Shown in pieces: positions 31,827 to 48,124 of a DNA stretch of 64,000 bases (positions are counted from its first letter, which is position 1; each line of letters begins with the position of its first letter). The notes under the pieces are model-generated. The model was not told the origin of the DNA. It searched no databases and was given only the letters and a program-made list of their open reading frames with translations. A program made the position numbers and the translations under genes. Source of the stretch: Escherichia coli (GTDB taxonomy: Bacteria; Pseudomonadota; Gammaproteobacteria; Enterobacterales; Enterobacteriaceae); assembly GCF_024700885.2 (NCBI RefSeq), contig NZ_CP117016.1. One strand, 5' to 3'.

Positions 31827-31991
31827 ATGGCAAAGCCGATCATCACGCTCAATGGCCTAAAAATCGTCATTATGTTGGGAATGCTGGTCATTATTCTCTG
31901 CGGTATCCGTTTTGCCGCCGAGATCATCGTGCCGTTTATTCTCGCATTATTTATTGCTGTTATATATAACTTATTTCGCATAACACATTGA
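31827..31991 (+). pseudogene. tqsA: tqsA (AI-2 exporter) 5' fragment, truncated by island insertion
   Basis: [45 protein letters not shown] runs into island DNA (IYNLFRITH*). The continuation [11 protein letters not shown] resumes at 47227. Confidence 0.9.
31955..31963. repeat. att core copy (integrase-distal junction; I call it attL by window position)
   Basis: TGCTGTTAT, identical to 47218..47226. Confidence 0.85.
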
Positions 31992-32037
31992 TTTAATTAA
32001 ATAATTAACACCGCAAAAAGTGCCAAAAATCGCAAAA

Positions 32038-32060
32038 TGACTACACCAGTGACTACACCG
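32038..32060 (+). repeat. 23-bp arm repeat TGACTACACCAGTGACTACACCG (left arm)
   Basis: A perfect copy lies at 47068..47090 in the same orientation. It is internally a tandem GACTACACC x2. Similarity continues for about 10 more bp (TCG[G/T]TGCAC). Confidence 0.85.
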
Positions 32061-32077
32061 TTCGGTGCACTGTATGA

Positions 32078-32102
32078 AACAACGTGGAACAAATAGACAC
32101 AA
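32078..32102 (+). repeat. 10-bp-phased (A/C)ACAA array, left arm (3 units)
   Basis: AACAA at 32078 and 32088, CACAA at 32098. Confidence 0.7.
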
Positions 32103-32415
32103 GAAATATACAGGCGGATCATCTTTCCAGGGGGAAGCACACCAATTCATGAGGGGCGTTAATGTCGATATGGGGATCCCCACCTACCGGAATTTTTTTC
32201 CGGTTAAACGTTAATCAGGCTGGTGGGCTTTACCTGTTCGGTAGGTGTTATGATTATCGTAATACCTTTCCCCCAATGGGGTAAAAGCATCAACCGTAAC
32301 GAAAGTCGTTATGGTTGCCACTGATACCCCAAATTTGGGTATCACGAGTAAGCCCCAAAATCTGGGTGTTACTCTTACTACCCAAACTACGGGTAGTTTC
32401 CGTAGTTTCATGGTC

Positions 32416-32435
32416 GAGTTGCAGATCTGCAACTC
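32416..32435. repeat. Perfect 20-bp palindrome GAGTTGCAGATCTGCAACTC
   Basis: Read directly from the sequence. It lies in a non-coding 0.7-kb island end, next to three CCCAAA..GGGT dyads (about 32324-32396) and a tandem GTAGTTTC x2. Confidence 0.8.
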
Positions 32436-32689
32436 CCCCATTAACCACAGGCGAATTTCCGCCTTCGGTCATTCCTTAATCATCTGCGTAATCATAATGA
32501 TTATTCAGCAAGCGCAATTTTGCGCTTTGCTTAAAGTTCAGCGAGTTACCGCGCCGACTTCCTCAAATTGAGGTTTCCGAAAATATCAGCGGGTTAGCGA
32601 TTAAGCTGACCATTAATTAAACTGCGAAAATGTCGTAGTTGTGAGGGGTGTAGCCAACCCATTTTTGGGCCGTCGGGAATATCAACCAG

Positions 32690-32971
32690 TTACCGCCGCA
32701 ACCGCTCCGGCTTCTTCCAGTGGTACGTTATTTTCTCCTTCTCCCGATACATCTCCACGCGGCGACGGTAGGCCAGCAACTCAAGAACTCTGGTTCGTAT
32801 GTTGCGCATATCCACGCCATTAAGTTCTATACCATCACGGCGCATCACCTCAGCAACAACACGCGCATAGTTTTCGGCTGTCACGCTGTCCGGCTGCGTG
32901 GCCTGTTCGTCAGCCTGCTGGCTGATTCCGGCAACGCGGCGGATTAATCCCGTTATTTCGGCTTCTGTCAT
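32690..32971 (-). CDS. Hypothetical protein (93 aa) downstream of terL
   Basis: ATG with SD gaggt. It lies 13 nt after the TerL stop. No family was recognised. Confidence 0.6.
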   Translation of the reverse strand: MTEAEITGLIRRVAGISQQADEQATQPDSVTAENYARVVAEVMRRDGIELNGVDMRNIRTRVLELLAYRRRVEMYREKEKITYHWKKPERLRR

Positions 32972-32984
32972 GCTGCTGACCTCA

Positions 32985-34646
32985 TTACACCCCGCTAAAT
33001 TCTTCCAGTTTCTGGCGGTGGCTGTCGCTTATATCAAAAGCAAAATCCTCATGCTCTGCCTGGAATGTACCAAACGCCATCAGCGCCGCCACGCTCGGGT
33101 CTATCTTGTTCGGTGATTTTTTCTTGTTCGGCTTGATATTGGCGTTCGCGTCACTCTGCATCACGACGTTACTCATCGACCAGGACAACACCGGATCGCC
33201 ACGATGCACAATCACCCTGCGGTTAACAAAAACTTCGAACGATTTCGCCGCCGGACTGAATCTGAGGTAGGTTTGCGGGAACGGCTCCACCTCAAAACCT
33301 GCCCCCTGTAATTGCGTTCTGAGATGCGTGGCGTTCCACGTATCAAAGCCCACCAGCCTGATATTAAATTTCTCCGCGTCCTGCATGATGTCATCTCTGA
33401 TCCGGTCGTAATCAATGCAGTCGCCAGGCGTTGTGCGTATCCAGCCTGCTTTAGCCCACTGACGATAGATGGCGCGGTTTTTATTGGCGGGGTTCTGTAG
33501 CTGAAATTCCGGCAGATAGTGACGGGAAACCAGCATAATGGTTTTACCGACCGGAAAGGCATAGCACACGCTGGAAATATCGCTGGTTGATGATAAGTCC
33601 AGCCCCGCGTAACACTCCTGGCCGTGTAAATCTTCCTCCGTGAACGTTCCGGCACACTCAGCCCATGCGCCGTTACCCATCCACGGGGTAGCCCCCTGGC
33701 ACCAGATATTAAATCGCTTTGTCATCATCTCCACCCACTGCGACGGAATACCCCGCGCTTTCTGGATGGTTGAGGCCAGTTTTTCACGATCGACGGAAAC
33801 ATCAATATTAGGGTTCGCCTTTATCCACATCGCCGGATCATCAACCTCGTTTTCGTCGTCCAGTTCGTAAATCAGTACAAAAATTGAATCGTTAACCTCT
33901 TCGCCGTCCAGGATCTGGCAGCAATAATCATAGTGCTGCTTACAGGCTGAAACGACGTTGCTGCCTGATGTGGTAATGGCAAATAACAGCCCTTCGGGAC
34001 GTGCGCCCATCCCCAGCTCAAGCGCGGAATAAACGCCGTTATCGGGGTGCAAGTGGTATTCGTCCACGATGGAAAGGCTGGGGTTTGTTCCCTCGATGGT
34101 TGCCGCTTTTGCTGCCAGCGGCTTTAACAGGCTGTTGCTTTTCGGGTGTATCACCTTATGCGCCTGAATATTCACCCGCCTGCGTAACGGTCGGGATAAA
34201 AGGCACATCTGACGCGCATCATCAAAGACGATCCGCGCCTGGTCACGGCTCACCGCTGCGGTGTAGATATCCTGCTGACCGTTCTCCATAATCAGAAACC
34301 AGTTAGCCAGAATCGCGGCGGTCGTGGATTTCGCATTTTTGCGCGGCACTTCGATAAAGGCGCTCGTGTATTTGCGCCGTCCGGTGGCCTTAACCTTAAA
34401 GCCGAGGATGCACGCAAAGGCGAACTGCTGCCACGGCTCCAGCTCAATGGGTCTGCCACGCATCGGTCCTTTTACGTGCGGGCACACCCTGGAAAAGGCA
34501 ATAAACCGCTCCACAACCTCACGATCGAACGTGTAAAGGGGGCTTTTAAGGTCCGAAAAGTACCGTTTAACGGCCTGTTTCAGCCGTTTACAGGCCGGAA
34601 TTTTGCCCGTTTTTACGTCTTCTGCGTACTTATTCCAGGCGGTCAA
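32985..34646 (-). CDS. terL: Terminase large subunit (Terminase_1-type)
   Basis: 553 aa with an ATPase region (VPRKNAKST Walker A-like, IVDEYH Walker B) and a C-terminal nuclease. The TTG start overlaps the terS 3' end and has SD gagga. Confidence 0.85.
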   Translation of the reverse strand: MTAWNKYAEDVKTGKIPACKRLKQAVKRYFSDLKSPLYTFDREVVERFIAFSRVCPHVKGPMRGRPIELEPWQQFAFACILGFKVKATGRRKYTSAFIEVPRKNAKSTTAAILANWFLIMENGQQDIYTAAVSRDQARIVFDDARQMCLLSRPLRRRVNIQAHKVIHPKSNSLLKPLAAKAATIEGTNPSLSIVDEYHLHPDNGVYSALELGMGARPEGLLFAITTSGSNVVSACKQHYDYCCQILDGEEVNDSIFVLIYELDDENEVDDPAMWIKANPNIDVSVDREKLASTIQKARGIPSQWVEMMTKRFNIWCQGATPWMGNGAWAECAGTFTEEDLHGQECYAGLDLSSTSDISSVCYAFPVGKTIMLVSRHYLPEFQLQNPANKNRAIYRQWAKAGWIRTTPGDCIDYDRIRDDIMQDAEKFNIRLVGFDTWNATHLRTQLQGAGFEVEPFPQTYLRFSPAAKSFEVFVNRRVIVHRGDPVLSWSMSNVVMQSDANANIKPNKKKSPNKIDPSVAALMAFGTFQAEHEDFAFDISDSHRQKLEEFSGV

Positions 34647-34986
34647 GCTCGTCCTCTTCTTCTGTTTCCGGTGGGTTTTTACGGCGGCTTATCGGGTCAA
34701 AACCGAGCAAGGAGGCCATTTTTATCATCACCCTTTCAGCGTCTGATTTCGCGCTTAATGCGGGGTTTCTGCTCTCGCCGCCCTGACTGTTAACAATGCT
34801 GAACCCGCGCGCCGCAAGGTCTGCGACGGCTTTCCGGTAAATGGAGTAGTTGACACAATACAGTTCCAGATTGCTCCAGTCGGCGGGGGTCAGGTCTCCC
34901 CGTTCCGCAAGCTGCCGCGATTTTTCCCGCCACTGCTTCACGGCGATGTCATCCAGGTAGGCGGGGGCTTTCGGTGGTCTTGCCAT
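34630..34986 (-). CDS. terS: Terminase small subunit, P27 family
   Basis: 118 aa; MARPPKAPAYLDDIAVKQWRE...LELYCVNYSIYRKA is typical of P27-family TerS. Confidence 0.8.
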   Translation of the reverse strand: MARPPKAPAYLDDIAVKQWREKSRQLAERGDLTPADWSNLELYCVNYSIYRKAVADLAARGFSIVNSQGGESRNPALSAKSDAERVMIKMASLLGFDPISRRKNPPETEEEDELDRLE

Positions 34987-35108
34987 GCTTATTTTTCGTC
35001 AGATTATTTTTCAAAAAATTCCCGTGCATAAAAATTTGAGGAGGCGTTCGGTGCCCGGCGGGGTCGGGTTTGTCCTGAAAACGCCCCCCACCCCGTCATA
35101 CAGCCTCA

Positions 35109-35282
35109 TCAGCGATTGCGGAAACATTCCATAACCTCGCGGTCACGGTCGGTTAATCGCTTCGCTGTGATGCGTTCTGCGCGTCCTGACGCTTTATCTT
35201 TATGCCCTGTTTCCTGTGTCTTCCATGCGTCACGCTGCCTTATAAGTCCACGGATAAGGCGGTTTTGTTCCCGCTCATTCAT
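35109..35282 (-). CDS. Small hypothetical protein (57-60 aa) between HNH and terS
   Basis: This is the C-terminal part of track ORF 35109..35513. The ATG at 35282 (or 35291) overlaps the HNH stop. The rest of that ORF is out of frame inside the HNH gene. Confidence 0.4.
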   Translation of the reverse strand: MNEREQNRLIRGLIRQRDAWKTQETGHKDKASGRAERITAKRLTDRDREVMECFRNR

Positions 35283-35715
35283 CAGCGTCATACATCCAGT
35301 TATTGCGGTTAGCGGCCCGTTCTTCCTCTTCACGAAATCCACCTGCGGCACGCTTGCTTTTTGTTGCCGGATCAAGCCATTTCGTTTTCTGGTTATGACA
35401 CGCCTGGCACAATGGTTGATGGTTCCATTCGGGCCAGAAGAGAACATCATCACCGCCATTAATCGGGATAATGTGATCCACCACCACGGCGGGCGTATAT
35501 ATCCCCTTCTCAAGGCATCGCACGCATAACGGGTTTTTACTCAGATACATGGCGCGGTATTTGTCCCACTGTCTGGAATATCCACGCGCGCGGCGGTGTC
35601 CTCGTCTGGCATCCTCTGCACGCCATGCCGCCCGCCTGTGCTCCTCACACTTGCCGGATTTAACGCGCCTGTTACAGCCTGGTTCTGTGCATCGTCTTAA
35701 TGGTTGCCACGGCAT
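35275..35715 (-). CDS. HNH endonuclease (packaging-associated)
   Basis: 146 aa with Cys pairs and DHIIP...N..LCQACHNQKT, an HNH motif. It sits beside terS as in HK97-like cos phages. Confidence 0.85.
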   Translation of the reverse strand: MPWQPLRRCTEPGCNRRVKSGKCEEHRRAAWRAEDARRGHRRARGYSRQWDKYRAMYLSKNPLCVRCLEKGIYTPAVVVDHIIPINGGDDVLFWPEWNHQPLCQACHNQKTKWLDPATKSKRAAGGFREEEERAANRNNWMYDADE

Positions 35716-36011
35716 CAGTACACCCCCACATCACGGTAAGCCGTCCAGAGTGCGCCTATCGTCATGGGTACGCGTGTTTTTGCGTTATCCGCGACAATCT
35801 GGCGATTTTCATACAGGTGAGCGATAAACATCATGCAGCCAATCTTTATGGCTGGCGTGAACTCCAGCCCGTCATCAAAGCGCCTGCCTATGTGTATCTG
35901 GCACGCCTCAAGCGATGCGGCAATGTATCCGCTGATTAACTGGTCTTCATCGTCGCCATCGATGCGGCAATGGAGTTTCACTTCTTCCAGGGTGATAAGT
36001 TCTTCTGTCAT
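35715..36011 (-). CDS. gp6-like head-tail connector protein
   Basis: 98 aa. MTEELITLEEVKLHCRIDGDDEDQLISGYIAAS is the typical Phage_connect_1 N-terminus. ATGA overlap with the upstream gene. Confidence 0.75.
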   Translation of the reverse strand: MTEELITLEEVKLHCRIDGDDEDQLISGYIAASLEACQIHIGRRFDDGLEFTPAIKIGCMMFIAHLYENRQIVADNAKTRVPMTIGALWTAYRDVGVY

Positions 36012-36346
36012 TTTTCCGCGCCCTCACGACAAAGAATTTCAAGGCGTGTCCTGGCGGCATCCGGCAGCGGCTGCCCGATGATATTCAGTACACGCCCCGC
36101 CAGCGGCCCCGTACTGACCTTTATCCGGCTGGTGGCGTTGATGTCCTTCCGGTACCGTATCCAGATCCTTACGGTACCAATCGCCAGCTCTGCGCCCGAT
36201 GAAATGGCCTCCTTGCTGCTGACCATGTTCACGCTTGCCCAGAGTGTGTGACCGTCCTCCCACGTTTCGAGTATTTCGCCGGTTATATCCCTGGTCTGTT
36301 TCAGGGTCTGAATCGTTATCCTGTCACGCAGTCGCCCTATGTTCAT
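36008..36346 (-). CDS. Head-closure / head-tail adaptor protein (SPP1 gp16-like)
   Basis: The start was set at MNIGRLRDRITIQ (ATG 36346, ATGA overlap with the portal stop), giving 112 aa. Confidence 0.7.
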   Translation of the reverse strand: MNIGRLRDRITIQTLKQTRDITGEILETWEDGHTLWASVNMVSSKEAISSGAELAIGTVRIWIRYRKDINATSRIKVSTGPLAGRVLNIIGQPLPDAARTRLEILCREGAEK

Positions 36347-37554
36347 TCCGGTTTTTCTCCCTCGCTGATTTTTACTTCCTGTTTCCATGCCTGGCTGAAC
36401 TCATCACCACCATCACGCGGTGACAGACCTTCACGTTCGCGGGCTTCGTTCGGACACATAACGCCGGATTTGATGCCGCGCTCATAGGTGGCAAAGCGTT
36501 CGCCAGGTGTGGCCCGTAACAGGTCCGCGCTGTCAAACTCCACCTGATACCGGATACCAGGTACAGGCGAGGCCACCAGCAGGGCGTTTTTTATCTGCTG
36601 CTCAAAGTTCGCCAGCCACGGGCGCATCGTCATGGTGAGAAATGCGCGGCTTGCCTCGCTGAAATTGCTGTAGGTGCTGTTGCTGTATTCCTGCAAAAAA
36701 ATCGGCGAGACGTTGAACATTCGGGCGATGTCTTCAATGGTGAAGCGACGGGAGGCCAGCCATTCAGCATCCTGATTACTCATGCCCAGCTGCTGATAGC
36801 TCATACCCCCTTCAAGGATGGGCGTTTTTCCGGCGTTTCTGGCCCCTTTGTAGCGTTCCAGTGCGGCTAATGCCTGTTTGCCCTTCACGCCGTCCAGCCA
36901 TTCGCCTGACGTGATAACCCCTGCCGCCATCATGCCATCACGCATCACGCTCGCGCCGTGGCGTTGTTGGGCCAGCCCAAGCCCCAGCGATTCGCGGCAG
37001 ATGGTTACAGGTGAGCACCCCATAAAGCCGTCATCCGTGGAGTAACGAAGGTGAAGTACTTCCCACGGTAAATAGTTGCGGGTGTTTCCGGTGTAGGCGT
37101 CAGTGATGCAGTAGCGCCAGTTGTGTTCGCCTGTCTGCTCCACGTTCACCGACTGCGGCGGGTAAGGATGTAAAGCCGCCGGAAAACCATCACGCCCCCA
37201 CTGAATCACCGCATAAGCATTACCGTTTAACAGGCAGTGGCGGATCATCATTCGCTTAAACTGGTAGGGGGTTTGCCATGCGTTCGGGCGCTCGTTGAGG
37301 ATGTGATCGACCGGATGAGAATCAAGCCACTCGCGGGCCTCCTTCCCCTTCTCATTGCGTACCAGGTACAGGTAACACGGCATGGTAGCCACCGCCTCAG
37401 AGATGACCGTCACGGCGTTCATGACGGCGGGCAGTGATTCCGCTGTCCCCGATGATACGTACTCACCCGCCCCCGTGTTCGATGTGCCAGCCAGCGCCAT
37501 AAATTCATCCAGCGTCATGCTGCGCTGCTCTTTTTTTCTTCTGAAAGGCCACAT
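36343..37554 (-). CDS. Portal protein, HK97 family
   Basis: 403 aa, recognised by family-typical sequence and position. SD gggggtg. Confidence 0.85.
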   Translation of the reverse strand: MWPFRRKKEQRSMTLDEFMALAGTSNTGAGEYVSSGTAESLPAVMNAVTVISEAVATMPCYLYLVRNEKGKEAREWLDSHPVDHILNERPNAWQTPYQFKRMMIRHCLLNGNAYAVIQWGRDGFPAALHPYPPQSVNVEQTGEHNWRYCITDAYTGNTRNYLPWEVLHLRYSTDDGFMGCSPVTICRESLGLGLAQQRHGASVMRDGMMAAGVITSGEWLDGVKGKQALAALERYKGARNAGKTPILEGGMSYQQLGMSNQDAEWLASRRFTIEDIARMFNVSPIFLQEYSNSTYSNFSEASRAFLTMTMRPWLANFEQQIKNALLVASPVPGIRYQVEFDSADLLRATPGERFATYERGIKSGVMCPNEAREREGLSPRDGGDEFSQAWKQEVKISEGEKPE

Positions 37555-37555
37555 A

Positions 37556-38128
37556 TCACACCCCCGCTAAATCCACCCACCAGCGGCGATTATCCGCACG
37601 CGGCATTTTTTCGGGGTGCTGCTCATACAGGGAACGGCGGGCCAGCTCCACGCCGGAATCGGGGTAAGCCGGTACCGATGTAACGGTAATTTCGTACAGT
37701 TCCGCCACCAGCACGGTGCGCACGCATGGATCTGTTGTGGTATCCCATACATCCTTACGGGAGCGAAAGCCAAAGCTCATCCCCGAGATGTCCCCACGCT
37801 TAACCAGTTCGATAACGTCGCGCCCTGTACTGGTATCCGGTGGGGTCAGTTCAAAGCGTAACCCTGTTTCGTCCTCTTCCAGTTTCAGCGTGCCGGAACG
37901 GGTGCGCCCCAGTAACATGCTGTGGTCATGCTCATACAGGCCGCGAACGTCATTACCCGCCGCAAGCCACTCAGTAAACGCCCCCCGCTGGAATTTTTCG
38001 TAAAACTCCCCCCATAGCAGTTCTGAAAGCTTATCCCAGCGAACAACGTAGCCCGTCAGCGTACCGGCTCCGCTGGTAGTGATTTCCGATGACCGGATTT
38101 CCATACTCTTCATAATTTTTTCACCCAT
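37556..38128 (-). CDS. Prohead serine protease, HK97 (S78) family
   Basis: 190 aa (start may be 38113). EHD...LLGR and GMSFGF motifs are present. Confidence 0.85.
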   Translation of the reverse strand: MGEKIMKSMEIRSSEITTSGAGTLTGYVVRWDKLSELLWGEFYEKFQRGAFTEWLAAGNDVRGLYEHDHSMLLGRTRSGTLKLEEDETGLRFELTPPDTSTGRDVIELVKRGDISGMSFGFRSRKDVWDTTTDPCVRTVLVAELYEITVTSVPAYPDSGVELARRSLYEQHPEKMPRADNRRWWVDLAGV

Positions 38129-38137
38129 AAAACACTA

Positions 38138-38157
38138 AAGGGGCTTTTAAGCCCCTT
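38138..38157 (-). terminator. Hairpin between capsid and protease genes (possible attenuator)
   Basis: Stem aaggggctt/aagcccctt, followed on the minus strand by ttagtgtttt. Confidence 0.4.
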
Positions 38158-38167
38158 CTGTATGCTG

Positions 38168-39325
38168 TTAATCGTCGTCCTGTGGCAGTTCCAGAATCTT
38201 GATCGCGTTCGAATCCACCACGCCACCGCCTAAATATTTCTGCGTGAAAATTTTGATGAAGCCCGGCTCTGTGAGGTTGTCCGGTCTGGTGCGAACACCT
38301 GTTTCGTGATCAACAATGTAGTAACCGCGTTTGAAGTCACCCAGGGCAATAACGTTATCCGGCATAAACTCCAGATATTCGACCGGAAGGCCCAGTAACG
38401 TATCAGGATCACCCGCCTGTAAACGGTCGCGCCAGATGTAATCACCGTTCGCGTTCTTCACCTTCTGAAGTTTTGCCGCCGTCGTGGAGTTAACCACCCA
38501 GACCGCGTTTTTGCGGTATTTTTTACGTAATGCAAATTTCAGGTCGATCAGCGGGTCCGCAGATGTCCACGCCAGAGATTCGGAAGGTTTAATTACCTGC
38601 AACGTACCAAAATCACGCTCTTTGTCGTTCTTCTCTGCACGGGGTACGGATAAAAAGCCTTTTGCTTTTTTGTCACCGTCGCCCACAACCAGATCGCTTT
38701 CTTCGGTTTCCGTGAAGTTGTCGCCAATCTCGCCCGTCAGCCATGAAAGGATGTCCACATCGGAAAAATCCACGATTTCCTGCGTGGTGCGCGGGTACGC
38801 ATAGACCGGATACAGCTTAATGCTCACCTCGTTAATCTGCGGGGTGCTGGTCTGTTCGCGTGCCTTACCCTCTTCACCGTGGTTAACGGTCGCACCGCCA
38901 GCGGAAACAAGCTGCTTAAACTCGTTGCTGCTGATTTTCTTCACGGTACAGATGCGGCGCATGGTGGATTCATCCGTCAGCATTCGCATGATTTCGGTGT
39001 TCAGTTCGGGGATAACGGTATAACCACCATCAGCGGGAACGCCTGTACTTAATGCGCGGGTTTCACCTGTCAGAATGTAGTGACGTAGTTCGGCTGGGTC
39101 AGTGGTCTGACTGCTTTTACCTGGCTTGCTGCGCTCTTCGTCTGCAATGGCTTCAAGGCGGGAAATGTCTTTATCGAGGGATTCAGCTTTAGCGCGTAAT
39201 TCGTCAAATTTTGCGCCCTCAGCATCGTTAAGACTGCGGTTTTCTTTTTCCGCGTTCTCCAGCATGTCGCGCATCTGATTTTTAATGGCGGTTTTCTGCT
39301 GGCGTAATTCGATTATTCTCGGCAT
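38168..39325 (-). CDS. Major capsid protein, HK97 fold, with N-terminal delta/scaffold-like coiled coil
   Basis: 385 aa with a charged helical N-terminus (about 100 aa) followed by an HK97-family capsid body. Confidence 0.88.
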   Translation of the reverse strand: MPRIIELRQQKTAIKNQMRDMLENAEKENRSLNDAEGAKFDELRAKAESLDKDISRLEAIADEERSKPGKSSQTTDPAELRHYILTGETRALSTGVPADGGYTVIPELNTEIMRMLTDESTMRRICTVKKISSNEFKQLVSAGGATVNHGEEGKAREQTSTPQINEVSIKLYPVYAYPRTTQEIVDFSDVDILSWLTGEIGDNFTETEESDLVVGDGDKKAKGFLSVPRAEKNDKERDFGTLQVIKPSESLAWTSADPLIDLKFALRKKYRKNAVWVVNSTTAAKLQKVKNANGDYIWRDRLQAGDPDTLLGLPVEYLEFMPDNVIALGDFKRGYYIVDHETGVRTRPDNLTEPGFIKIFTQKYLGGGVVDSNAIKILELPQDDD

Positions 39326-39539
39326 AAAAAAAGTCCTGGGGTTAAGTAAGGAACTCCAGGACGCGGCAAAAACTCAACCGTTTTTCATAAGGAAATCAGC
39401 AATCGCACCGATCGTTTTCCCGCCTGGTAATGAATATTGGCGAGAACATTAACAGGCGGAAAAGTGGCCCCAGCGTCCTGGCACCACGGGCGAGAATAAT
39501 CATGATTCAGTTCGGGTAAAATATGCCGATCCGCTCAGT

Positions 39540-39565
39540 GAACAACGTGGAACAACCACGAACAA
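39540..39565 (+). repeat. Three GAACAA units at exact 10-bp spacing upstream of the capsid operon
   Basis: GAACAA at 39540, 39550 and 39560. Confidence 0.8.
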
Positions 39566-39583
39566 ATAATTTACAAAACATGA

Positions 39584-39606
39584 CAAAAAGCCGGATTGCT
39601 CCGGCT
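39584..39606 (-). terminator. Rho-independent terminator ending the early/replication operon
   Basis: The minus strand reads agccggagcaatccggct + ttttgt, immediately after the stop at 39613. Confidence 0.7.
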
Positions 39607-39612
39607 GTGTGA

Positions 39613-39894
39613 TTATCTGTCCTGGTAATTTCGCCATATTTCATTACCAGCACCATCCATACCCATTTCGGCATAAGTGCGATCGACCGCCTTTTTCAGG
39701 TCTCCGTAGTTATCCGGCGGCTCCGGTGGCCTCTGTGCCTTCCTGGAACATTCCAGCCGTCGCATCGTGATGTGATGCCGTTCCTTGTCTGTCTCCACCA
39801 GTTGCATGACTTCACCCCATCGCGCCGACGCTCTCCGGTAAAAGCCTTTCGCCTCCAGTTCTTCCGCTATGCGGTCATGTACCATCGTCCCCAC
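39613..39894 (-). CDS. PerC-like transcriptional activator (candidate)
   Basis: 93 aa. IAEELEAKGFYRRASARWGEVM matches the (L/F)(W/Y)RRAxxRWxEV motif I recall for the PerC/Pch family. Not verified by search. Confidence 0.5.
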   Translation of the reverse strand: MGTMVHDRIAEELEAKGFYRRASARWGEVMQLVETDKERHHITMRRLECSRKAQRPPEPPDNYGDLKKAVDRTYAEMGMDGAGNEIWRNYQDR

Positions 39895-39897
39895 CCC

Positions 39898-40308
39898 TCA
39901 GAACGGAATATCATCACCGTAAGGGTCATCGCCTCCCGCTGGTGGCTGATTACCCTGTGTGCCTGTGGTCTTGCGTCGGCTCCCACCAGGACGTGCCGCA
40001 CGGGCACTGATTACGCTGTCTGCAATAACCTGATAACCCTGCCGCGTTTCCCCGTTCTGTCCGGTCCACTGGCTGACCTGCATCGTGCCGGATACGCTGG
40101 CAACGTCGCCTTTTTGATGTTTAGCCAGGAAGTCGGCCTGCTTACCAAATGCGATGACCGATAGCCATAACGTCGCCTGTCCATCCTGTGCCTGGCTGCA
40201 TGGCAGCGATACCGCCATACGCGCCAGCGTCATCGGTGTACCCTTGCTGGTCTGTTTTACCTGCGGGTCGTCCACCAGCCGCCCGTAAGCTGCTATCTGT
40301 GCTGTCAT
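39898..40308 (-). CDS. ssb: Single-stranded DNA-binding protein
   Basis: 136 aa with an OB-fold N-terminus, a Gly/Pro-rich linker and the acidic tip DDIPF. Confidence 0.88.
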   Translation of the reverse strand: MTAQIAAYGRLVDDPQVKQTSKGTPMTLARMAVSLPCSQAQDGQATLWLSVIAFGKQADFLAKHQKGDVASVSGTMQVSQWTGQNGETRQGYQVIADSVISARAARPGGSRRKTTGTQGNQPPAGGDDPYGDDIPF

Positions 40309-40583
40309 GATTCCACCTCTCCGGTTTTAACGTTGATGGTTGTTACCTGTTCCGCTTCGGCAATCTCCCGCTCTGTCAGCGTGGCAAAATTTGCCGCCGT
40401 CGTGGTCATGAATGCGCTTATCAGTTTGGGATGTGCTTTCGCGTATCCTTCCCCCGCGTGGCGGTCTATCGTTCTGATTGCCACCTTTAAAGCGTGCTCT
40501 GTCATGTCTAACGCGCGATATTTCGGTTCTGTTCTGTCTCTGCGTTTTTTGAGTGATTTATTAAATTTCCCTGAAGTGTGCAT
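40305..40583 (-). CDS. Hypothetical protein (92 aa)
   Basis: ATG at 40583. Its stop overlaps the ssb start (ATGA). Confidence 0.5.
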   Translation of the reverse strand: MHTSGKFNKSLKKRRDRTEPKYRALDMTEHALKVAIRTIDRHAGEGYAKAHPKLISAFMTTTAANFATLTEREIAEAEQVTTINVKTGEVES

Positions 40584-40632
40584 ATTTATTTTTACCCCCT
40601 CGTTTAAAAAGTTTTGAGTTGTGCCTCCCCTT

Positions 40633-40855
40633 GTCTACCTTATCTACCTTAGTGGCCCTCATACCAGTAATGGCGCGGCTTTCAGCGGGGTAGAGTGCTT
40701 TTATCCACTATCTACCCCGTGTCTACCTCCCTGTCTGATTCAGGTAAAATCAGGTAGAGAGGGTAGATAGTGGGTAGACAGTAAAAAAAGGTTATCTACC
40801 TAACTTAATGCACTGAATTAAATGTATTTTTCTTTACTCAGGTAGACAGGGTAGA
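40633..40855. repeat. Iteron cluster / candidate island replication origin
   Basis: 11 copies of the hexamer GGTAGA/TCTACC. TCTACC starts at 40634, 40644, 40711, 40722 and 40795. GGTAGA starts at 40689, 40753, 40762, 40773, 40841 and 40850. They flank an AT-rich stretch (40801-40840) directly downstream of the primase stop. Confidence 0.75.
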
Positions 40856-40871
40856 CAGCAATTACAAAAAA

Positions 40872-42626
40872 TTATAAAAACGCGTCGCACTCGTCTGTTG
40901 TTATTGCGTTAGTCTGCGTTACTCCCTTAACTTTCCGCGTAATATATTCATGTCCGTAAACTTTCGCGGCTGGCTTCATAGCCTTGCCAAAGTCATTTAC
41001 GTTTAGCGGTTTGCTCCTGCCTGCGTACGCCATAAACGCCAGATAGACGCGGTAAAGGCTGTTTCTGGTCGTGTACTTCACTGAATCGCCACCGCCGCCC
41101 ATCATCAGGCCGCGTGCTTCCTCCAGAAAATTCAGGAACTGGCAAAACTCAATAACCGGATCCGTCTGTTGCTTTATTGCCAGAGCTTCATCACCGTCAC
41201 GCTGTTCCAGTAGTAAAGCCCGTGCCTTCTCAGGGTCGGTAAAGTTCGCCAGCAATCGGCGGATAATGACAGGGATTTCAGCCGCGATCTTTTCCGGTAG
41301 CTCCCTGTCTTTTTCGGCCTCACTGACGATATTGTCGAAACGGAAAATCACGCGACGACGTGCCACACCTCCGGCCCGTTCGGTGAATATCATCGGGTTA
41401 TTGTTGGTCGCCAGCACCACCGCCCTGATTACCGCCGTGAAACGCTTTTCGTATTTCGGGTTAATTTCCACGGGGTCACCGCCCGTGATTTTCTTGATGC
41501 CCGTTCCTTCGCCTGTATATTTCGGCTGGTCAGCCAGGACGATAAGACGACTCCCGACAACCTGCGCACGTCCACCAGCATCATCAAGCGATGTCATTTC
41601 AGCGCTTACCGTGTTCTGTTTCCCTGCCAGAAGGCTGGCTATGTGTGTGAATGTACTTTTACCGCTCCCGCCGTCTCCGGTGGCCTCAATAAACATCTGC
41701 CAGTCGTACCGGTTCGCCATAATCATGTACAGCGCGGCACATATACGCATCATCTTGCGCGGGTCTTTTCCGGCTGCGTGCTCAAGCCATTTATGAAAGT
41801 TTGGCGCGTTATCGCGGATGTTCTCCCCTGGTGCTGGTGGCGTGTACTCAATGCCGTTGTGCGTGGTGATCCAGTTCTCCGGCGTGTGCGGGGAAAATTC
41901 CCCCGTTTTCAGGTCAAGCGCACCATTGGCGAACGGCAACAAATCGCCGGACGGCTCGCCCATTGGTTCGGCAATAACTTTTAACGCTTCCACGGCGTTA
42001 TTGATTACGCGCTTGCTGAAAGTGGCCCTGTGCTCTGAATAGATCGCCACCATTTCGCGGCTAAGTTCCATTGTGCTGACCGGACACCATACCCCGCCGC
42101 GCCATACGTGAACGATTTCACTTTCAGGATGTACGCAAACGCCATCAAAGCGATCGGCAAGCAGTTGCGCGCGCTCACTGTCCGCCATCTGCGAAAGTTG
42201 CGCCTTTTGCTTTACCGGAAGCTCAATGACCAGACCATCAGAAAGATTCTGGCGCTCACGGGCCAGATATTCGCGCCAGTTCTCCACCTTCTGACCGTGC
42301 ATACCATCAGGGTAAAAATTTGCATCCTGTACGCCTGCCGCCGCCAGCTTCTGACCAATCGCCTTTATCATTACTGGCGCAAGATATCCGGCCCTGAATA
42401 TGCGCACGGATTTTCTGCCTTCCGGCACAATTTGCAGCTTATCCAGTTCGGATAACTGCTGCTCCCCAAGCCACACAGGAGGCTCATTATCTCCGGCCAT
42501 ACGCGCGTCATGTTCCTGCCATTGTTTTGCGTGTGACCAGGCATCACTACCCGCAAAAATAATGACTTCTGTTTCTTTGTGTTTTATGCCGCGTGACTGC
42601 TGTTTTACGTTCGGTGCCAGTTTCAT
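40872..42626 (-). CDS. P4-family primase/helicase (pri-rep)
   Basis: 584 aa with Walker A GDGGSGKST and Walker B LIVLADQP. The C-terminal architecture is D5/P4-alpha-like. Confidence 0.82.
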   Translation of the reverse strand: MKLAPNVKQQSRGIKHKETEVIIFAGSDAWSHAKQWQEHDARMAGDNEPPVWLGEQQLSELDKLQIVPEGRKSVRIFRAGYLAPVMIKAIGQKLAAAGVQDANFYPDGMHGQKVENWREYLARERQNLSDGLVIELPVKQKAQLSQMADSERAQLLADRFDGVCVHPESEIVHVWRGGVWCPVSTMELSREMVAIYSEHRATFSKRVINNAVEALKVIAEPMGEPSGDLLPFANGALDLKTGEFSPHTPENWITTHNGIEYTPPAPGENIRDNAPNFHKWLEHAAGKDPRKMMRICAALYMIMANRYDWQMFIEATGDGGSGKSTFTHIASLLAGKQNTVSAEMTSLDDAGGRAQVVGSRLIVLADQPKYTGEGTGIKKITGGDPVEINPKYEKRFTAVIRAVVLATNNNPMIFTERAGGVARRRVIFRFDNIVSEAEKDRELPEKIAAEIPVIIRRLLANFTDPEKARALLLEQRDGDEALAIKQQTDPVIEFCQFLNFLEEARGLMMGGGGDSVKYTTRNSLYRVYLAFMAYAGRSKPLNVNDFGKAMKPAAKVYGHEYITRKVKGVTQTNAITTDECDAFL

Positions 42627-42922
42627 TTTTTACCCCTGAATCCGTTAATCATGGTTTTCAGCTTCTGGATGTTTGCCCGTGCCCTGGCGTTGCTGGTGGA
42701 CACGTTATGCGGCGCGGTCTGTACCAGAGAAAAATCACGCCGGAACTGATAAACAGGCATCACGCAATCATATTCGTAACCTTCACGGCGGTAGGTTACG
42801 CGCCGTTCTTCCACGCCCTTAATCATTACCGTGCCGCCGTACTGGTCGCGGTAAATATCGCCGCGCGTAAATTTAGGGTGAGTGTTGCCACTGGCAGTTA
42901 AGCCAGAATATTTAAGTTTCAT
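42623..42922 (-). CDS. Hypothetical protein (99 aa)
   Basis: SD ggaga. ATGA overlap with the primase start. Confidence 0.55.
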   Translation of the reverse strand: MKLKYSGLTASGNTHPKFTRGDIYRDQYGGTVMIKGVEERRVTYRREGYEYDCVMPVYQFRRDFSLVQTAPHNVSTSNARARANIQKLKTMINGFRGKK

Positions 42923-42927
42923 TATTT

Positions 42928-43161
42928 TTATTCTCCGGTGTGCTGTTCTTTATATCTGTCGTGCAATAGATCTATTTCTTGCAGTTCCATTATTACAGGC
43001 TCAAGAAGCGTTATTAATGCCGTGGCAATTCTTGATTTTTGTTTGTCGCGTTCATTGTCGCCAAGTGTTTCAAGCCATATGCGCAATATTTCCAGCATGT
43101 TTTCACTGTGAGAAAGTGCAAGAAATGCGCGGTCTATTGTTTCGTGGTAAATATCACGCAT
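42928..43161 (-). CDS. Hypothetical protein (77 aa)
   Basis: ATG with SD gagga. Part of the packed operon. Confidence 0.5.
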   Translation of the reverse strand: MRDIYHETIDRAFLALSHSENMLEILRIWLETLGDNERDKQKSRIATALITLLEPVIMELQEIDLLHDRYKEQHTGE

Positions 43162-43387
43162 GGCTTACATCCTCAGGAAATTTTCTTCTATAACGCGCCT
43201 CTGCCACATATTCCGCATAATCGGCGGCGATATTCAGTACATCAAGCCCCGTTGATTTATATTCTCTCGTGGAAAGTAAGAAAAAAGCCGCTCTAATAAG
43301 TTCTGGCATTGACGAAAGCGCATCAGCCGCATCATCAGGAACGCCGGAAAATTCCTGTTTCAGGGAATTAAAACGATCATCACGCAT
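43154..43387 (-). CDS. Hypothetical protein (77 aa)
   Basis: ATG with SD gggggg. It has 8-nt overlaps with both neighbouring genes. Confidence 0.5.
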   Translation of the reverse strand: MRDDRFNSLKQEFSGVPDDAADALSSMPELIRAAFFLLSTREYKSTGLDVLNIAADYAEYVAEARYRRKFPEDVSHA

Positions 43388-43745
43388 GTTTACCCCCCTG
43401 AATGACCTGATAACCGCAACTGGTCAGCAACTCGATAAATTCCGGCAGTGTGCCGAAACAGCAATCATCACGCAGCCGTTCACAGGATACCTCGACGCCG
43501 TTTTCGTAGTGACTCACCATACATCCGGTAAAATGCAGATCATCATCGTGATGGCTCGTTGACGGCTTAATCAGTCGCGCACGTTCCGCCAGTTCCAGCA
43601 ATGCTTCAACGCTTCCGGCAATTGCACCATCCGGCAGGTGATAATTACGCACTATGCGCCCGTTCTCCACATTGACCAGCAACTGCCCGGTAAATTTCTC
43701 ATCAAACTGAATGCTGTTAAGGTCAGAAATTGACAGATTATGCAT
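43380..43745 (-). CDS. Hypothetical protein (121 aa)
   Basis: The start was moved to MHNLSISDL (ATG 43745), preceded by a strong SD aggagg. Confidence 0.55.
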   Translation of the reverse strand: MHNLSISDLNSIQFDEKFTGQLLVNVENGRIVRNYHLPDGAIAGSVEALLELAERARLIKPSTSHHDDDLHFTGCMVSHYENGVEVSCERLRDDCCFGTLPEFIELLTSCGYQVIQGGKHA

Positions 43746-43962
43746 GGTGCACCTCCTGCACATCAGCCATGATAATTTTTCCGGCCTTATCCAGTGCCTG
43801 ATCGGCTTTTAGCTGCACAAATGCTAAATAATGGAAGATGCATTCTGATTCTCTGGCTGCGTGTTTATGCGCCCTGTCAGCAATAACAGAAATATCAATA
43901 AGCGCGTGCATCAGCGTAGTGAGCGCGGCGGCGGCTGCGTCCGGTGTGGTTTTATTGCACAT
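43738..43962 (-). CDS. Hypothetical protein (74 aa)
   Basis: The start was moved to MCNKTTPD (ATG 43962), preceded by SD ggagggg. Confidence 0.5.
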   Translation of the reverse strand: MCNKTTPDAAAAALTTLMHALIDISVIADRAHKHAARESECIFHYLAFVQLKADQALDKAGKIIMADVQEVHHA

Positions 43963-44182
43963 GTACCCCTCCGCATTTTTTTTCGTTAGAAATAAGCGTT
44001 CTTCTTTCCTGTTCATCGCTCAGGAATACGCAGACCTCACCGCTAAGGCGTTTAAGTAAGCCGATGATTGCCCCTGATTCGCTGTCGGTCATCATGCCAG
44101 GGTAATCCTCTGCCAGTGCGCAAATAACTTCGATTTGGTGGGCGCGTTCTGCTGCCTGTTGTAGTGTGATTTCCTGGCTCAT
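43952..44182 (-). CDS. Hypothetical protein (76 aa)
   Basis: ATGA overlap with the icd-like stop. Confidence 0.5.
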   Translation of the reverse strand: MSQEITLQQAAERAHQIEVICALAEDYPGMMTDSESGAIIGLLKRLSGEVCVFLSDEQERRTLISNEKKCGGVHVQ

Positions 44183-44379
44183 AAGCCTACCCCCTGACGA
44201 ATACGGGCAGCAAATACCATCACGCAGCCAGCCGGAGATTGCTGGCGTGCTTCCTGTTCGCTGGTGGCCTCAATGGTAATCACGCGCGGTTGTGCCGTGC
44301 TCAGGGCGATAAAACGCCAGATGTATTTATTCAGGTTGTGCGAGTCCCGCCCTTGCGGGTGTGTGGTATGATTTCTCAT
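44179..44379 (-). CDS. Icd-like host cell-division inhibitor (66 aa)
   Basis: This is the C-terminal 66 codons of the 340-aa track ORF. ATG at 44379 with SD gaggt. YIWRFIAL...ATSEQEARQ...VFAARIR resembles Icd-like proteins of P4-type elements, from memory. Confidence 0.55.
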   Translation of the reverse strand: MRNHTTHPQGRDSHNLNKYIWRFIALSTAQPRVITIEATSEQEARQQSPAGCVMVFAARIRQGVGL

Positions 44380-44475
44380 AGCTACCTCGATACTTTCGCT
44401 ATCGTTGGTGGTTAGAAGCCCGGTTAGTGTTAGCGCACTGCCGGGTTTCGTCGTTTCTGCACCTTGCGCCAACAA

Positions 44476-44529
44476 GGTGTTGAACACCAATTTAAACCCA
44501 GGTGTTAAACACGTCAAGTGTTGAACACT
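44476..44529. promoter_or_regulatory. Three operator-like 13-bp dyads (GTGTT-N-AACAC) in a divergent promoter region
   Basis: GGTGTTGAACACC 44476-88, GGTGTTAAACACG 44501-13, AGTGTTGAACACT 44517-29. A putative rightward promoter, TTGAAC(44521)-17 nt-CATACT(44544), overlaps the third dyad. Confidence 0.65.
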
Positions 44530-44578
44530 TATTTTTTTTCCTGCATACTGCATTTGTTTTTTATGAGGGGTACACCAC

Positions 44579-44758: not shown

Positions 44759-44800
44759 TCACCATCAGCGCCGTGGTGTAAGGTATTACGGCGCATTGCT

Positions 44801-45258: not shown

Positions 45259-45447
45259 TTAATGAACTGCCTTGCAGCTATCCTTCCAGGCCAGAACCTC
45301 GGATAAAGACCAGCCAACGGAACGACCGCCAAGTTTACGACGTGATGGGAATTGTCCGGCCTTTTCCAGGCGGTAGCGACACGTACGGCTAAGGCCGGTT
45401 AGTTTTTCGCATTCTTTTTCACGTATAAACCGATCAGTGCTTAACAC
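45259..45447 (-). CDS. alpA: AlpA-family regulator / excisionase-type HTH
   Basis: FIREKECEKLTGLSRTCRYRLEKAGQFPSRRKLGGRSVGWSLSEVLAW is the typical AlpA/Phage_AlpA motif. The favoured start is the GTG at 45447, 5 nt after SD aagggggg. The track ORF extends to a TTG at 45528. Confidence 0.8.
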   Translation of the reverse strand: MLSTDRFIREKECEKLTGLSRTCRYRLEKAGQFPSRRKLGGRSVGWSLSEVLAWKDSCKAVH

Positions 45448-45765: not shown

Positions 45766-45812
45766 TCTGTTCGCATATCCAGTATGCGCATACTGAAAAA
45801 ACACGAAAAAAA

Positions 45813-47042
45813 TTATTTTCTTCTGGCTACGGGTAGCGTGGTTACGTTTTCATGTGTTCCCGCCAGTATCCCTAACCGCTCCGTCCACATATCCAGCGCA
45901 TTGCGTTTCGCATCCAGATAACGGGAATGATTATAAACTCGCTGCATTCCTGGCATCTGGTGGCCTGTAAGCTGCTCCACGACATGCGGATCAACGCCTA
46001 AATCGTTCAGCATGGTTGTAAAGGTGCGCCGGATGTCATGCAGTGACCAGTGAGGGTGATTAAGCCTCCTGTACGCTAATCTTCCATACTGCGATACGCT
46101 GGCCTCCTGTTTCACTTCCCCCAGCAATAAGCCCGTGTGCCTGTTCTGCTCCACCAGCTGCGTGACGAACGGCAGGATCGCTTCCGGTATGGGCCGGAAT
46201 ATTGCGACCTTCGTTTTGCTGTGCTCCTTCGGAACGGTCCATAGCATTTCCGTAAAATCCCACTCCCCGATCTCCGATAACCTCAGTTCTACCGTTCTGG
46301 CTCCGAAGACAATCAGGAGGCGGATTAACGCGACGTAGTAAGGGGAGAATATTTTTTTGTCCAGTGCCTGCAATAATTCGCCAAGTTCTTTGTTACTTAA
46401 GACACGTTCGCTTATATCCGGTTTTTTCCCAACGTCCGCAACGTTCAGATCGTCCAGAACGTTGCTGATTGCATAGCGCCGCCTACGGCAGAACTTAAGC
46501 GCCTGTTTGCACGCCTGTAGCACGAATCCGGCAGTAACAGGCGTTCGCTTTGCCACCTGGTCAAAACAGGCCAGCCAGTGCCGTAGCTCGCATTTATCCA
46601 GCGGCATAGCACCAATCTGCTGTATTACGTGATTATTAAGTCGCCTTTTCAGGGCGATATAATCCACGCGGTTTTCCTTTACGTAATACTCAAGCCAGTA
46701 GGTGAGCGCATCGCCAACCGTTACGGGCTTTAACGCTTCCTGTACGGTGTAATTCATCTCATGACGTGGATTTTTCCCCTCAGCCAGCCATGTGCGACAC
46801 TGTGCGGCTTTTTCCCTGGCTGCTTTCAGGCTCAGATCAGGATAACTTCCCAGCTTAATGCGTTCGGGTCGTGTCTCCCTTCCCGTTCCGGCCCTGTATG
46901 TGAAATACCAGGTCAATTTCCCTGATGTTAAATATTTCACGCTCAGGTTTCCGCCATCACTATAAAACGTGTTTTTCTCCGCTGGCTTACCATGAAGTTT
47001 CCTTAGCAAGGTATCGCTCAGTTTGTTCATTGCTCTGCTCAC
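45813..47042 (-). CDS. int: P4-type tyrosine integrase (DUF4102 arm-binding N-terminus + catalytic core)
   Basis: 409 aa, with either a GTG at 47042 or an ATG at 47030 (MNKLSDTLLRKL). The N-terminus is GKLTWYFTYR...LGSYPDLSLKAAR. Catalytic motifs HDIRRT and Y in VYNHSRY are present. Confidence 0.9.
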   Translation of the reverse strand: MSRAMNKLSDTLLRKLHGKPAEKNTFYSDGGNLSVKYLTSGKLTWYFTYRAGTGRETRPERIKLGSYPDLSLKAAREKAAQCRTWLAEGKNPRHEMNYTVQEALKPVTVGDALTYWLEYYVKENRVDYIALKRRLNNHVIQQIGAMPLDKCELRHWLACFDQVAKRTPVTAGFVLQACKQALKFCRRRRYAISNVLDDLNVADVGKKPDISERVLSNKELGELLQALDKKIFSPYYVALIRLLIVFGARTVELRLSEIGEWDFTEMLWTVPKEHSKTKVAIFRPIPEAILPFVTQLVEQNRHTGLLLGEVKQEASVSQYGRLAYRRLNHPHWSLHDIRRTFTTMLNDLGVDPHVVEQLTGHQMPGMQRVYNHSRYLDAKRNALDMWTERLGILAGTHENVTTLPVARRK

Positions 47043-47067
47043 GTTTTACCCCCTCTTTACGAAAAAG

Positions 47068-47090
47068 TGACTACACCAGTGACTACACCG
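47068..47090 (+). repeat. 23-bp arm repeat TGACTACACCAGTGACTACACCG (right arm)
   Basis: Perfect copy of 32038..32060, in the same orientation. Confidence 0.85.
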
Positions 47091-47132: not shown

Positions 47133-47217
47133 GGAAAATCACAAATCTATTGATAATCAAAAACATAATGCACAGCCTGAAACATTATGAAACAGCAAAA
47201 AACACTAAATGATAAAA

Positions 47218-47226
47218 TGCTGTTAT
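47218..47226. repeat. att core copy (integrase-proximal junction; I call it attR by window position)
   Basis: TGCTGTTAT, identical to 31955..31963. Confidence 0.85.
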
Positions 47227-48124
47227 TCTTAACCCGCTGGTGCAACACATGGTCCGCTGGCGTGTGCCGCGTGTACTGGCAGTGTCGATTTTGATGACCA
47301 TCATCGTGATGGCGATGGTGTTGCTGTTAGCTTATCTGGGTTCCGCACTCAACGAGTTGACGCGGACGTTACCGCAATATCGCAACTCTATTATGACGCC
47401 GCTGCAAGCTCTTGAACCGTTGTTGCAACGCGTAGGGATTGACGTCTCAGTTGACCAACTGGCGCATTACATTGATCCGAACGCGGCGATGACGTTGCTC
47501 ACCAACTTATTGACGCAGTTATCTAATGCCATGTCATCAATCTTTTTATTGCTGCTGACGGTGCTGTTTATGCTGCTCGAAGTGCCACAATTGCCCGGAA
47601 AATTTCAGCAAATGATGGCGCGTCCGGTTGAAGGGATGGCGGCGATTCAGCGTGCGATTGACAGTGTGTCTCATTATCTGGTGCTGAAAACAGCCATCAG
47701 CATCATCACCGGCCTGGTCGCCTGGGCGATGCTCGCCGCACTCGATGTTCGCTTCGCTTTTGTCTGGGGATTGCTGGCCTTTGCGCTTAATTACATCCCG
47801 AATATTGGTTCAGTTCTCGCGGCAATCCCCCCTATTGCTCAGGTACTGGTGTTTAATGGCTTCTACGAAGCGTTGCTGGTGCTGGCGGGATATCTGCTGA
47901 TTAATCTGGTCTTCGGCAATATTCTGGAGCCACGCATCATGGGGCGTGGGCTGGGGCTTTCCACATTGGTGGTATTTTTGTCGTTGATTTTTTGGGGATG
48001 GTTGTTAGGACCGGTGGGTATGCTGCTTTCCGTGCCGTTGACAATTATTGTCAAAATTGCGCTTGAACAAACAGCGGGAGGTCAAAGCATCGCCGTTCTG
48101 TTAAGCGATCTCAATAAAGAGTGA
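47218..48124 (+). pseudogene. tqsA: tqsA 3' fragment (codons ~44-344)
   Basis: The frame continues (A)[21 protein letters not shown]...LSDLNKE*. An in-frame TAA lies at 47213-15 just upstream, so there is no island-provided N-terminus. Confidence 0.9.

Follow-up and report, generated by a model that had tools for sequence, protein, structure and literature searches.

The tqsA locus in the window

The window that we analysed is a stretch of 64,000 nucleotides of Escherichia coli DNA (contig NZ_CP117016.1), to which all coordinates refer unless another element is named. In it tqsA, the gene for the autoinducer 2 (AI-2) exporter, is found in two pieces separated by an island with the genes of a phage satellite (Table 1). 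The annotation of the island genes was borrowed from a near-identical copy (L001), which differs by 5 nt. RefSeq labels both pieces of tqsA in that copy as partial pseudogenes and gives the 5' piece the product name "pheromone autoinducer 2 transporter, missing C-terminus". All the annotated genes of the island but two small ORFs lie on the minus strand, and Icd-like proteins are encoded in addition to the products listed in Table 1.

A few features were noticed far from the island. By the annotation of the collinear strain SCU-204, an IS200C transposase is located at 1574-2032, beside mgtS, and the mgtT gene is listed as truncated (1388-2032). The same annotation places short remnants of ydeI and of a 2-oxo-tetronate isomerase gene back to back at 3462-3670, in what looks like a deletion scar. 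The gene ydfJ is intact in this strain.

Table 1 Features of the interrupted tqsA gene and of the island, in order along the window
Feature	Coordinates	Strand	Evidence and remarks
tqsA 5' fragment	31827..31963	+	codons 1-45 plus two bases of codon 46; ends with the attL core copy
54-codon ORF	31827..31991	+	46 residues of native identity, then island-encoded YNLFRITH and TGA
attL copy of the 9-bp core TGCTGTTAT	31955..31963	+	reverse complement of the published PICI att core ATAACAGCA in tqsA
Predicted capsid-forming PICI (phage satellite)	31964..47217	- (nearly all genes)	15,254 bp; RefSeq annotation of the L001 copy, Pfam, PHROGs
Tandem TGACTACACC repeats, putative arm-type integrase sites (P' side of attP)	32038..32059	+	same repeats in EcCI042
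Conserved 93-aa terminal PICI gene	32690..32971	-	phrog_1561; homologues at the same place in L004, L005, L006, L016 and L017
Terminase large subunit	32985..34646	-	Pfam TerL_ATPase, TerL_nuclease; 98.7% aa identity to EcCIEDL933
Terminase small subunit (P27 / Terminase_4)	34630..34986	-	100% aa identity to EcCIEDL933
HNH endonuclease, packaging module	35275..35715	-	phrog_144; 99.3% aa identity to EcCIEDL933
Head-tail adaptor	35715-36011	-	phrog_40; 99.0% aa identity to EcCIEDL933
Head closure protein	36008-36346	-	phrog_25; 96.4% aa identity to EcCIEDL933
Portal protein	36343..37554	-	Pfam Phage_portal, E = 6e-90; 99.0% aa identity to EcCIEDL933
HK97-type prohead protease	37556..38128	-	Pfam Peptidase_S78
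HK97-fold major capsid protein	38168..39325	-	Pfam Phage_capsid, E = 1.5e-61; 99.2% aa identity to EcCIEDL933
PerC-family transcriptional activator, accessory gene	39613..39885	-	RefSeq annotation, PHROGs
Single-stranded DNA-binding protein	39898..40308	-	RefSeq annotation
Primase/replication protein	40872..42626	-	D5_N, DUF5906, Pox_D5
AlpA-family regulator, 62 aa, PICI induction switch	45259..45447	-	Pfam Phage_AlpA, E = 1.5e-16; identical in EcCI042 and EcCIEDL933
P4-type tyrosine integrase, 409 aa, tqsA-targeting lineage	45813..47042	-	Pfam; 405/409 identical to the EcCI042 integrase
Tandem AGTGACTACACC repeats, putative arm-type sites (P side of attP)	47066..47089	+	
Island-encoded TAA in the tqsA frame	47213..47215	+	two codons 5' of A44, the first native codon of the 3' fragment
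attR copy of the 9-bp core TGCTGTTAT	47218..47226	+	
tqsA 3' fragment	47227..48124	+	rest of codon 46 to the stop; candidate in-frame restarts GTG 47240 (V51) and ATG 47249 (M54)

Insertion junctions and consequence for TqsA

The core that flanks the island begins at nucleotide 129 of tqsA, the third base of codon 43, and ends in codon 46. The 9-mer alone is weak evidence, since it has three matches in the window against 0.46 expected and three were also reached in one of 100 shuffles; the third copy, at 53959, is unrelated. The decisive test is the join of the two tqsA pieces across one core copy. Positions 31827-31963 and 47227-48124 put together give an ORF of 1,035 nt and 344 amino acids with zero internal stops, and the rejoined protein matches the TqsA of PDB 7NB6 over residues 1-344 (E = 1e-208). 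The attB so reconstructed is TTTATTGCTGTTATTCTTAACC. In its attP the island (31964-47217) brings no tqsA-like segment that would replace the one cut off.

The sequence-only reading had stated that the integration is intragenic, that it cuts tqsA at codons 43-46 and that the element does not repair the gene, and it had proposed aligning both fragments to intact tqsA; the two core copies, the continuous frame with its full-length match and the attP all agree with it. It was also right about the in-frame TAA ahead of the 3' fragment and about GTG 47240 and ATG 47249, which are the first in-frame starts of that fragment. For the 5' ORF it had counted 45 native residues and nine island codons. The fusion running to the stop at 31989-91 is confirmed, but the actual split is 46 plus eight, because at residue 46 ATA replaces ATT and both code for Ile, so that this residue is native in identity. 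The ORF begins MAKP, reaches FIAVI at the end of its native part and continues with the island-encoded residues to the TGA.

The cryo-EM work on TqsA (PMC9475539) describes H1 (T7-F29) as making the principal contact of the pentamer on the cytoplasmic side and H2 (A31-W57) as a horizontal helix embedded in the membrane, which passes across TMH5 where the domains meet, while the hairpins HP1 and HP2 are called a functionally critical element. The insertion cuts inside H2. Any product restarted at V51 or M54 would be without H1 and most of H2, and the earlier description of a truncated protein lacking the first TM segment has to be replaced by this one. A crude consensus scan found no sigma-70-like promoter on the plus strand of 46700-47400, nor any outward promoter or terminator able to drive the 3' fragment, and there is no convincing Shine-Dalgarno sequence before GTG 47240 or ATG 47249. 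Since the attP carries no tqsA-like replacement, the gene is left cut within H2 and is almost certainly null in carriers, in which AI-2 export would be lost. Deletion of tqsA in K-12 gives more biomass, motility, biofilm, intracellular AI-2 and lsr expression (Herzberg et al. 2006, in the summary given by PMC9475539).

Gene content and relatives of the island

The int-alpA-replication order and a size of about 10-15 kb, both typical of E. coli PICIs, were found in the island, which measures 15,254 bp. The P4-type nature of the integrase, already recognised from the sequence, is confirmed by its Arm-DNA-bind_3, Phage_int_M and Phage_integrase domains (PF13356, 67 bits; PF22022, 20 bits, which is below its cutoff of 27; PF00589, 59 bits). 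Neither RefSeq annotation nor Pfam nor PHROGs revealed tail or lysis genes in the island. No deposited phage record covered more than 13% of it, the best one doing so at 78.6% identity. The perC gene is among the PICI accessory genes of Table S1 in Fillol-Salom et al. 2018 (PMC6092414). Judged by its gene content, which is the one published for capsid-forming PICIs (cf-PICIs), the island belongs to that class.

Direct comparison agrees with this. The same gene order and content, also without tail or lysis genes, are found in EcCIEDL933, the prototype of the cf-PICIs (Alqurainy et al., bioRxiv 10.1101/2022.09.08.507074). The packaging modules share 97.4% nucleotide identity over 6.9 kb and their proteins 96-100%, AlpA is identical, and the sizes are similar (15.4-15.5 kb against 15.25 kb in the window). 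However, EcCIEDL933, as we located it in EDL933, sits between the phoQ stop codon and roxA, with the core AAATATGTCC and nothing disrupted; the identity of its integrase falls to 91%, and a DUF927-type protein serves for its replication. The opposite pattern is found with EcCI042. Here the att core ATAACAGCA, reverse complement of TGCTGTTAT, lies at nucleotide 129 of tqsA with the same crossover, 405 of 409 integrase residues and all 62 of AlpA are identical, and the arm repeats and the left-end gene are the same. In contrast, EcCI042 is a classical PICI of 11 kb, in which a RepA-type replication module is accompanied by no more than a capsid protein and a decoration protein. The island of the window, at 15.25 kb, has the full set of capsid and packaging genes together with a primase of D5 type, and only about 36% of it aligns with EcCI042. 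The element thus reads as an integration and regulation module of EcCI042 type joined to a packaging module of EcCIEDL933 type.

PICI induction follows when a helper phage activates alpA expression, and helper dependence is known for EcCICFT073 and EcCIEDL933; in the latter an alpA mutation abolishes both induction and transfer. From the identity of its AlpA, the island of the window would depend on a helper in the same AlpA-mediated way. Small capsids that attach to helper phage tails were shown for EcCIEDL933 only.

Some annotations within the island deserve separate mention. PGAP calls an ORF of 60 amino acids on the plus strand (47030-47212) that overlaps the start of the integrase gene, spans the attP arm repeats and terminates shortly before the attR core. 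No Pfam or PHROG family matches it and no such ORF is annotated in the islands of the sister lineage described below; it is probably spurious. On the minus strand PGAP breaks up a continuous ORF of 340 codons (44179-45201) into three calls, namely an Icd-like gene, a pseudogene and a YlcI/YnfO gene on the opposite strand; a phage repressor PHROG matches its C-terminal ~90 residues only. Antisense to this repressor-like part, at 44380-44452 (+), there is a symR-like Rfam match that scores 33 bits where the gathering score is 61 and is probably due to chance, and no Rfam family is above threshold in the region. Finally, nested imperfect inverted repeats (arms of 33 and 26 nt) are found at 32277-32395, within the non-coding 726 bp with which the island begins on the left; our guess would be a packaging site or some other cis element.

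Use of the tqsA site across E. coli genomes

We searched 5,426 complete E. coli genomes for the occupied junctions and, with a 300-nt reconstructed site as query, for the empty site, a survey that the sequence-only reading had recommended. The uninterrupted empty site was present in 5,169 genomes, the attL junction in 245 and the attR junction in 246, an occupancy of about 4.5%. At least 80% of the island of the window was present in 158 of the genomes, while its packaging module, at 80% coverage or more, was found in 411. The integrase protein, searched against one genome per species, gave a single close relative, in Shigella flexneri and at another site.

At least four different elements occupy the identical core position: the predicted cf-PICI of the window, an 11.5-kb island with capsid and decoration protein only (L004), a 15.05-kb cf-PICI with a different replication module (L005) and EcCI042 (L016). 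The exact crossover position is common to the five tqsA-site elements compared, and their integrases are 97-99.5% identical to one another. The tail that the islands add to the 5' stub is IYN* in L004, IYNSFNLTN* in L005 and YNLFRITH in the window; it varies from one island to another, and therefore there is no conserved fusion peptide. In strain SCU-204 the island differs by 5 nt in 15.25 kb and the chromosomal flanks by about 1.2%, so that a near-identical island lies within divergent flanks, which indicates horizontal arrival in different backgrounds. By these comparisons, the tqsA site is the dedicated attB of this integrase lineage and not an accident.

Actually, the site had been described before. 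Table S1 of Fillol-Salom et al. 2018 (PMC6092414) lists EcCI042 and EcCIK1516 with the att core ATAACAGCA in tqsA. No tRNA gene appears among the E. coli PICI att sites of that table. The sequence-only reading had set this insertion against the tRNA or tmRNA ends usually targeted by P4-type integrases; it is indeed intragenic, but its rarity was overstated. The cf-PICI preprint (10.1101/2022.09.08.507074) counts six attB sites for cf-PICIs. Two cf-PICIs by gene content, the island of the window and L005, use the tqsA site.

As a side observation, these satellites are modular mosaics, in which one int-alpA-att module is combined at tqsA with three cargoes that differ in their morphogenesis and replication genes.

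The sister integrase lineage at phoQ-roxA

A sister lineage of integrases, about 91% identical and with nearly identical attP arms, integrates at AAATATGTCC. This core overlaps the phoQ stop codon, and both phoQ and roxA are left intact. The phoQ-roxA site hosts EcCICFT073 and EcCIEDL933 and is occupied in 600 of the 5,426 genomes. Since the sister lineage occupies this harmless site, elements of the family have no need to disrupt a gene; those of the tqsA lineage simply do so.

The two lineages are separated by 31 fixed integrase differences, 20 of them within residues 1-74 (the arm-binding domain) and none after residue 259. Their arm repeats differ at the 5' bases, (A)GTGACTACACC in the tqsA lineage versus ATTAACTACACC or TTGACTACACC in the phoQ lineage, and the core-proximal ~25-30 nt of attP differ as well. 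This pair of integrases looks useful for the study of shifts in att specificity.

Two further observations concern the phoQ lineage. The cf-PICI packaging module, 97% identical, accompanies this other integrase as well at phoQ-roxA. In addition, the sequence CGGTGTAGTTAATGGTGTAGTTAATT, published as the "att core" of EcCIDI14, corresponds in reverse complement to the tandem arm-type repeat of the phoQ-lineage attP (18013-18037 of L006); tandem or nested islands may have it in common as an arm repeat, and it would then not be a true core.

Island polymorphism and a nonsense mutation in an apparent ST1193 clone

In 57 complete genomes, with or without the island, tqsA carries a nonsense mutation at codon 298 (S298*, TCG to TAG), located inside HP2. 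The equivalent base in the window, 47982, is the wild-type C. Going by strain names only (MCJCHV-1, MS10858, EcST1193), these genomes apparently represent the pandemic ST1193 clone. Our literature search found no publication dealing with both ST1193 and tqsA.

The island is present in 44 of the 57 genomes, and the other 13 are without a perfect occupied junction. Five of these 13 were checked and have a contiguous, scarless site on an identical haplotype, and the genome listings suggest that the remaining ones are empty too. The same haplotype with a wild-type codon 298 was found in seven occupied genomes (one of them verified) and nine empty ones. All four combinations of island and S298* are therefore present on one haplotype, which implies recent gain and/or loss of the satellite within one clonal complex. 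Either order of island insertion and S298* requires three events. If S298* arose only once, the state of the island would have changed at least twice in the clonal complex, unless there was recombination within 756 bp. Occupied and scarless empty sites in one apparent clone offer a natural system to measure rates of PICI gain and loss.

The tqsA gene has also been damaged independently in other ways in other strains. Strain MB20 and an ST131 strain gave partial matches only, and in strain CFSAN004176 (L002) a partial match that was first suspected to be another insertion site turned out to be an unrelated internal deletion in tqsA. Because of the 57 genomes with S298* and the deletion in CFSAN004176, tqsA can be considered dispensable, and S298* shows this for a very successful lineage. 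It also follows that in the 44 carriers with S298* excision cannot restore TqsA function.

A by-product of site choice or a genetic switch

The disruption itself is in the literature. Bobay et al. 2013 (PMC3603311) included tqsA among the core genes disrupted by prophage integration, and Mageeney et al. 2020 (PMC7192596) proposed it as a new candidate for regulated gene integrity. The supplement of the latter lists three E. coli elements of 11, 15 and 16 kb with the crossover about 30 residues into the UPF0118 domain, and in its domain-disruption test tqsA had an attB:attLR score ratio of ~1.27. With the disruption published in 2013, the site in 2018 and the regulated gene integrity proposal in 2020, both the observation and the idea of a switch were already in print. 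The insertion is real, was correctly read from the sequence, was already known and is ordinary for this family of elements.

We consider it very probable that the island is a cf-PICI at the dedicated att site of its lineage and that the loss of tqsA is a tolerated by-product. The element has entered a dedicated site, TGCTGTTAT at codons 43-46 of tqsA, by site-specific recombination, with a P4-type tyrosine integrase nearly identical to that of EcCI042 as the recombinase. With no tqsA-like segment in its attP, integration has cut the gene within H2 and left a stub of 54 amino acids, and a 3' piece with an in-frame stop upstream, no recognisable promoter or Shine-Dalgarno sequence and no H1 oligomerisation helix. 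Excision would take place only once a helper phage activates AlpA. As established for PICIs, excision goes hand in hand with replication, packaging and lysis by the helper, and the gene is restored mainly in cells entering the lytic cycle of the helper. Inactivation of tqsA would then most likely be a tolerated consequence of the site chosen by the satellite and not a switch regulated by the host.

The main alternative is that the reversible interruption of tqsA is itself selected, as regulated gene integrity of the active-lysogeny type, with export turned off by integration (and more intracellular AI-2, biofilm and motility) and turned on by excision. Several of its marks are found at this locus. 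The conserved UPF0118 domain is disrupted and the attP does not restore it, and a tight integrase clade (97-99.5% identical) is inserted at the same position in independent events, which is the pattern used for regulated gene integrity by Mageeney et al. 2020 (PMC7192596), whose candidate list contains tqsA; a selective reason for the choice of site therefore keeps some weight. The strong phenotypes of the tqsA deletion (Herzberg 2006, in the account of PMC9475539) also speak for it. The established cases (phi10403S/comK, skin/sigK, SPbeta/spsM, Stx phage/mlrA and phi13/hlb, PMC7192596) share with the tqsA insertion an integrase that targets the conserved interior of a coding sequence, an attP without replacement and a gene that precise excision would rebuild. 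In them, however, excision has been shown experimentally to be tied to a programme of the host such as sporulation or phagosome escape, whereas the island of the window is a helper-dependent satellite, of a type for which a helper phage is the only known trigger, with no known host cue, and many of its carriers have a second, irreversible lesion in tqsA. PICI induction requires the activation of alpA by a helper phage, so that excision is tied to helper-driven lysis, as established for PICIs, and not to a host programme; nor is a host-controlled excisionase evident. The scarless empty sites and the four combinations of island and S298* do point to recent gain and/or loss. By sequence, excision would give an intact ORF in the window, L004, L005 and L016, but S298* within HP2 would be retained in the 44 carriers, which argues against selection for a restorable gene there. 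The sister lineage, harmlessly inserted at the phoQ stop codon in 600 genomes, argues in the same direction. Overall we regard a selected switch as improbable. The sequence-only reading had said that excision would restore the gene and had called the insertion a potential reversible genetic switch. The first statement is right for the rejoined ORF of the window and fails for the 44 carriers with the nonsense codon in their 3' fragment; for the second we found nothing beyond reversibility in principle, PICI excision being helper-dependent.

A more speculative version, which we regard as quite improbable, would be that the satellite gains from inactivating the AI-2 exporter and that the tqsA site was selected for this reason; occasional scarless loss of the island would then amount to a satellite-driven phase variation of quorum signalling at the population level. 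If this were true, raised intracellular AI-2, lsr expression, biofilm and motility would bring carriers into dense communities with helper phages and recipients, and the four-state polymorphism of the ST1193 complex would reflect ongoing switching and not simple gain.

It is highly unlikely that the 3' fragment is expressed from V51 or M54 as an N-terminally truncated TqsA with a functional or neo-functional role, in which case export would be altered and not lost. The ORF of 294 codons at 47240-48124 is still open in the window, and its product would retain the C-terminal transport domain (TMH5, TMH6, HP1 and HP2) with the docked AI-2 site, but it would miss the pentamer contact of H1 and most of H2 at the domain interface. 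As to its expression, a GGTG seven nucleotides 5' of ATG 47249 could act as a weak internal start and read-through from island transcripts is compatible with the crude promoter scan; against this, that scan gave no promoter-like site on the plus strand of 46700-47400, the Shine-Dalgarno sequences are not convincing, there is a TAA in frame upstream, and the only ORF called ahead of the fragment (47030-47212) has zero family matches.

An accidental insertion by an integrase that properly belongs to another site, such as phoQ-roxA, where a 91%-identical integrase with nearly identical attP arms is in more frequent use (600 versus 245 genomes), is in effect refuted and keeps next to no probability, since the crossover is identical in all five tqsA-site elements compared, the tqsA integrases form their own lineage with 31 fixed differences and a different core-proximal attP sequence, and the tqsA core is a distinct PICI att site in Table S1 of Fillol-Salom et al. 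2018 (PMC6092414).

Significance for E. coli

If loss of tqsA acts in natural isolates as the deletion does in K-12, about 4.5% of the sequenced E. coli would carry a lesion in quorum signalling made by a satellite. The carriers include many extraintestinal pathogenic strains, and the function of tqsA should not be assumed in E. coli isolates.
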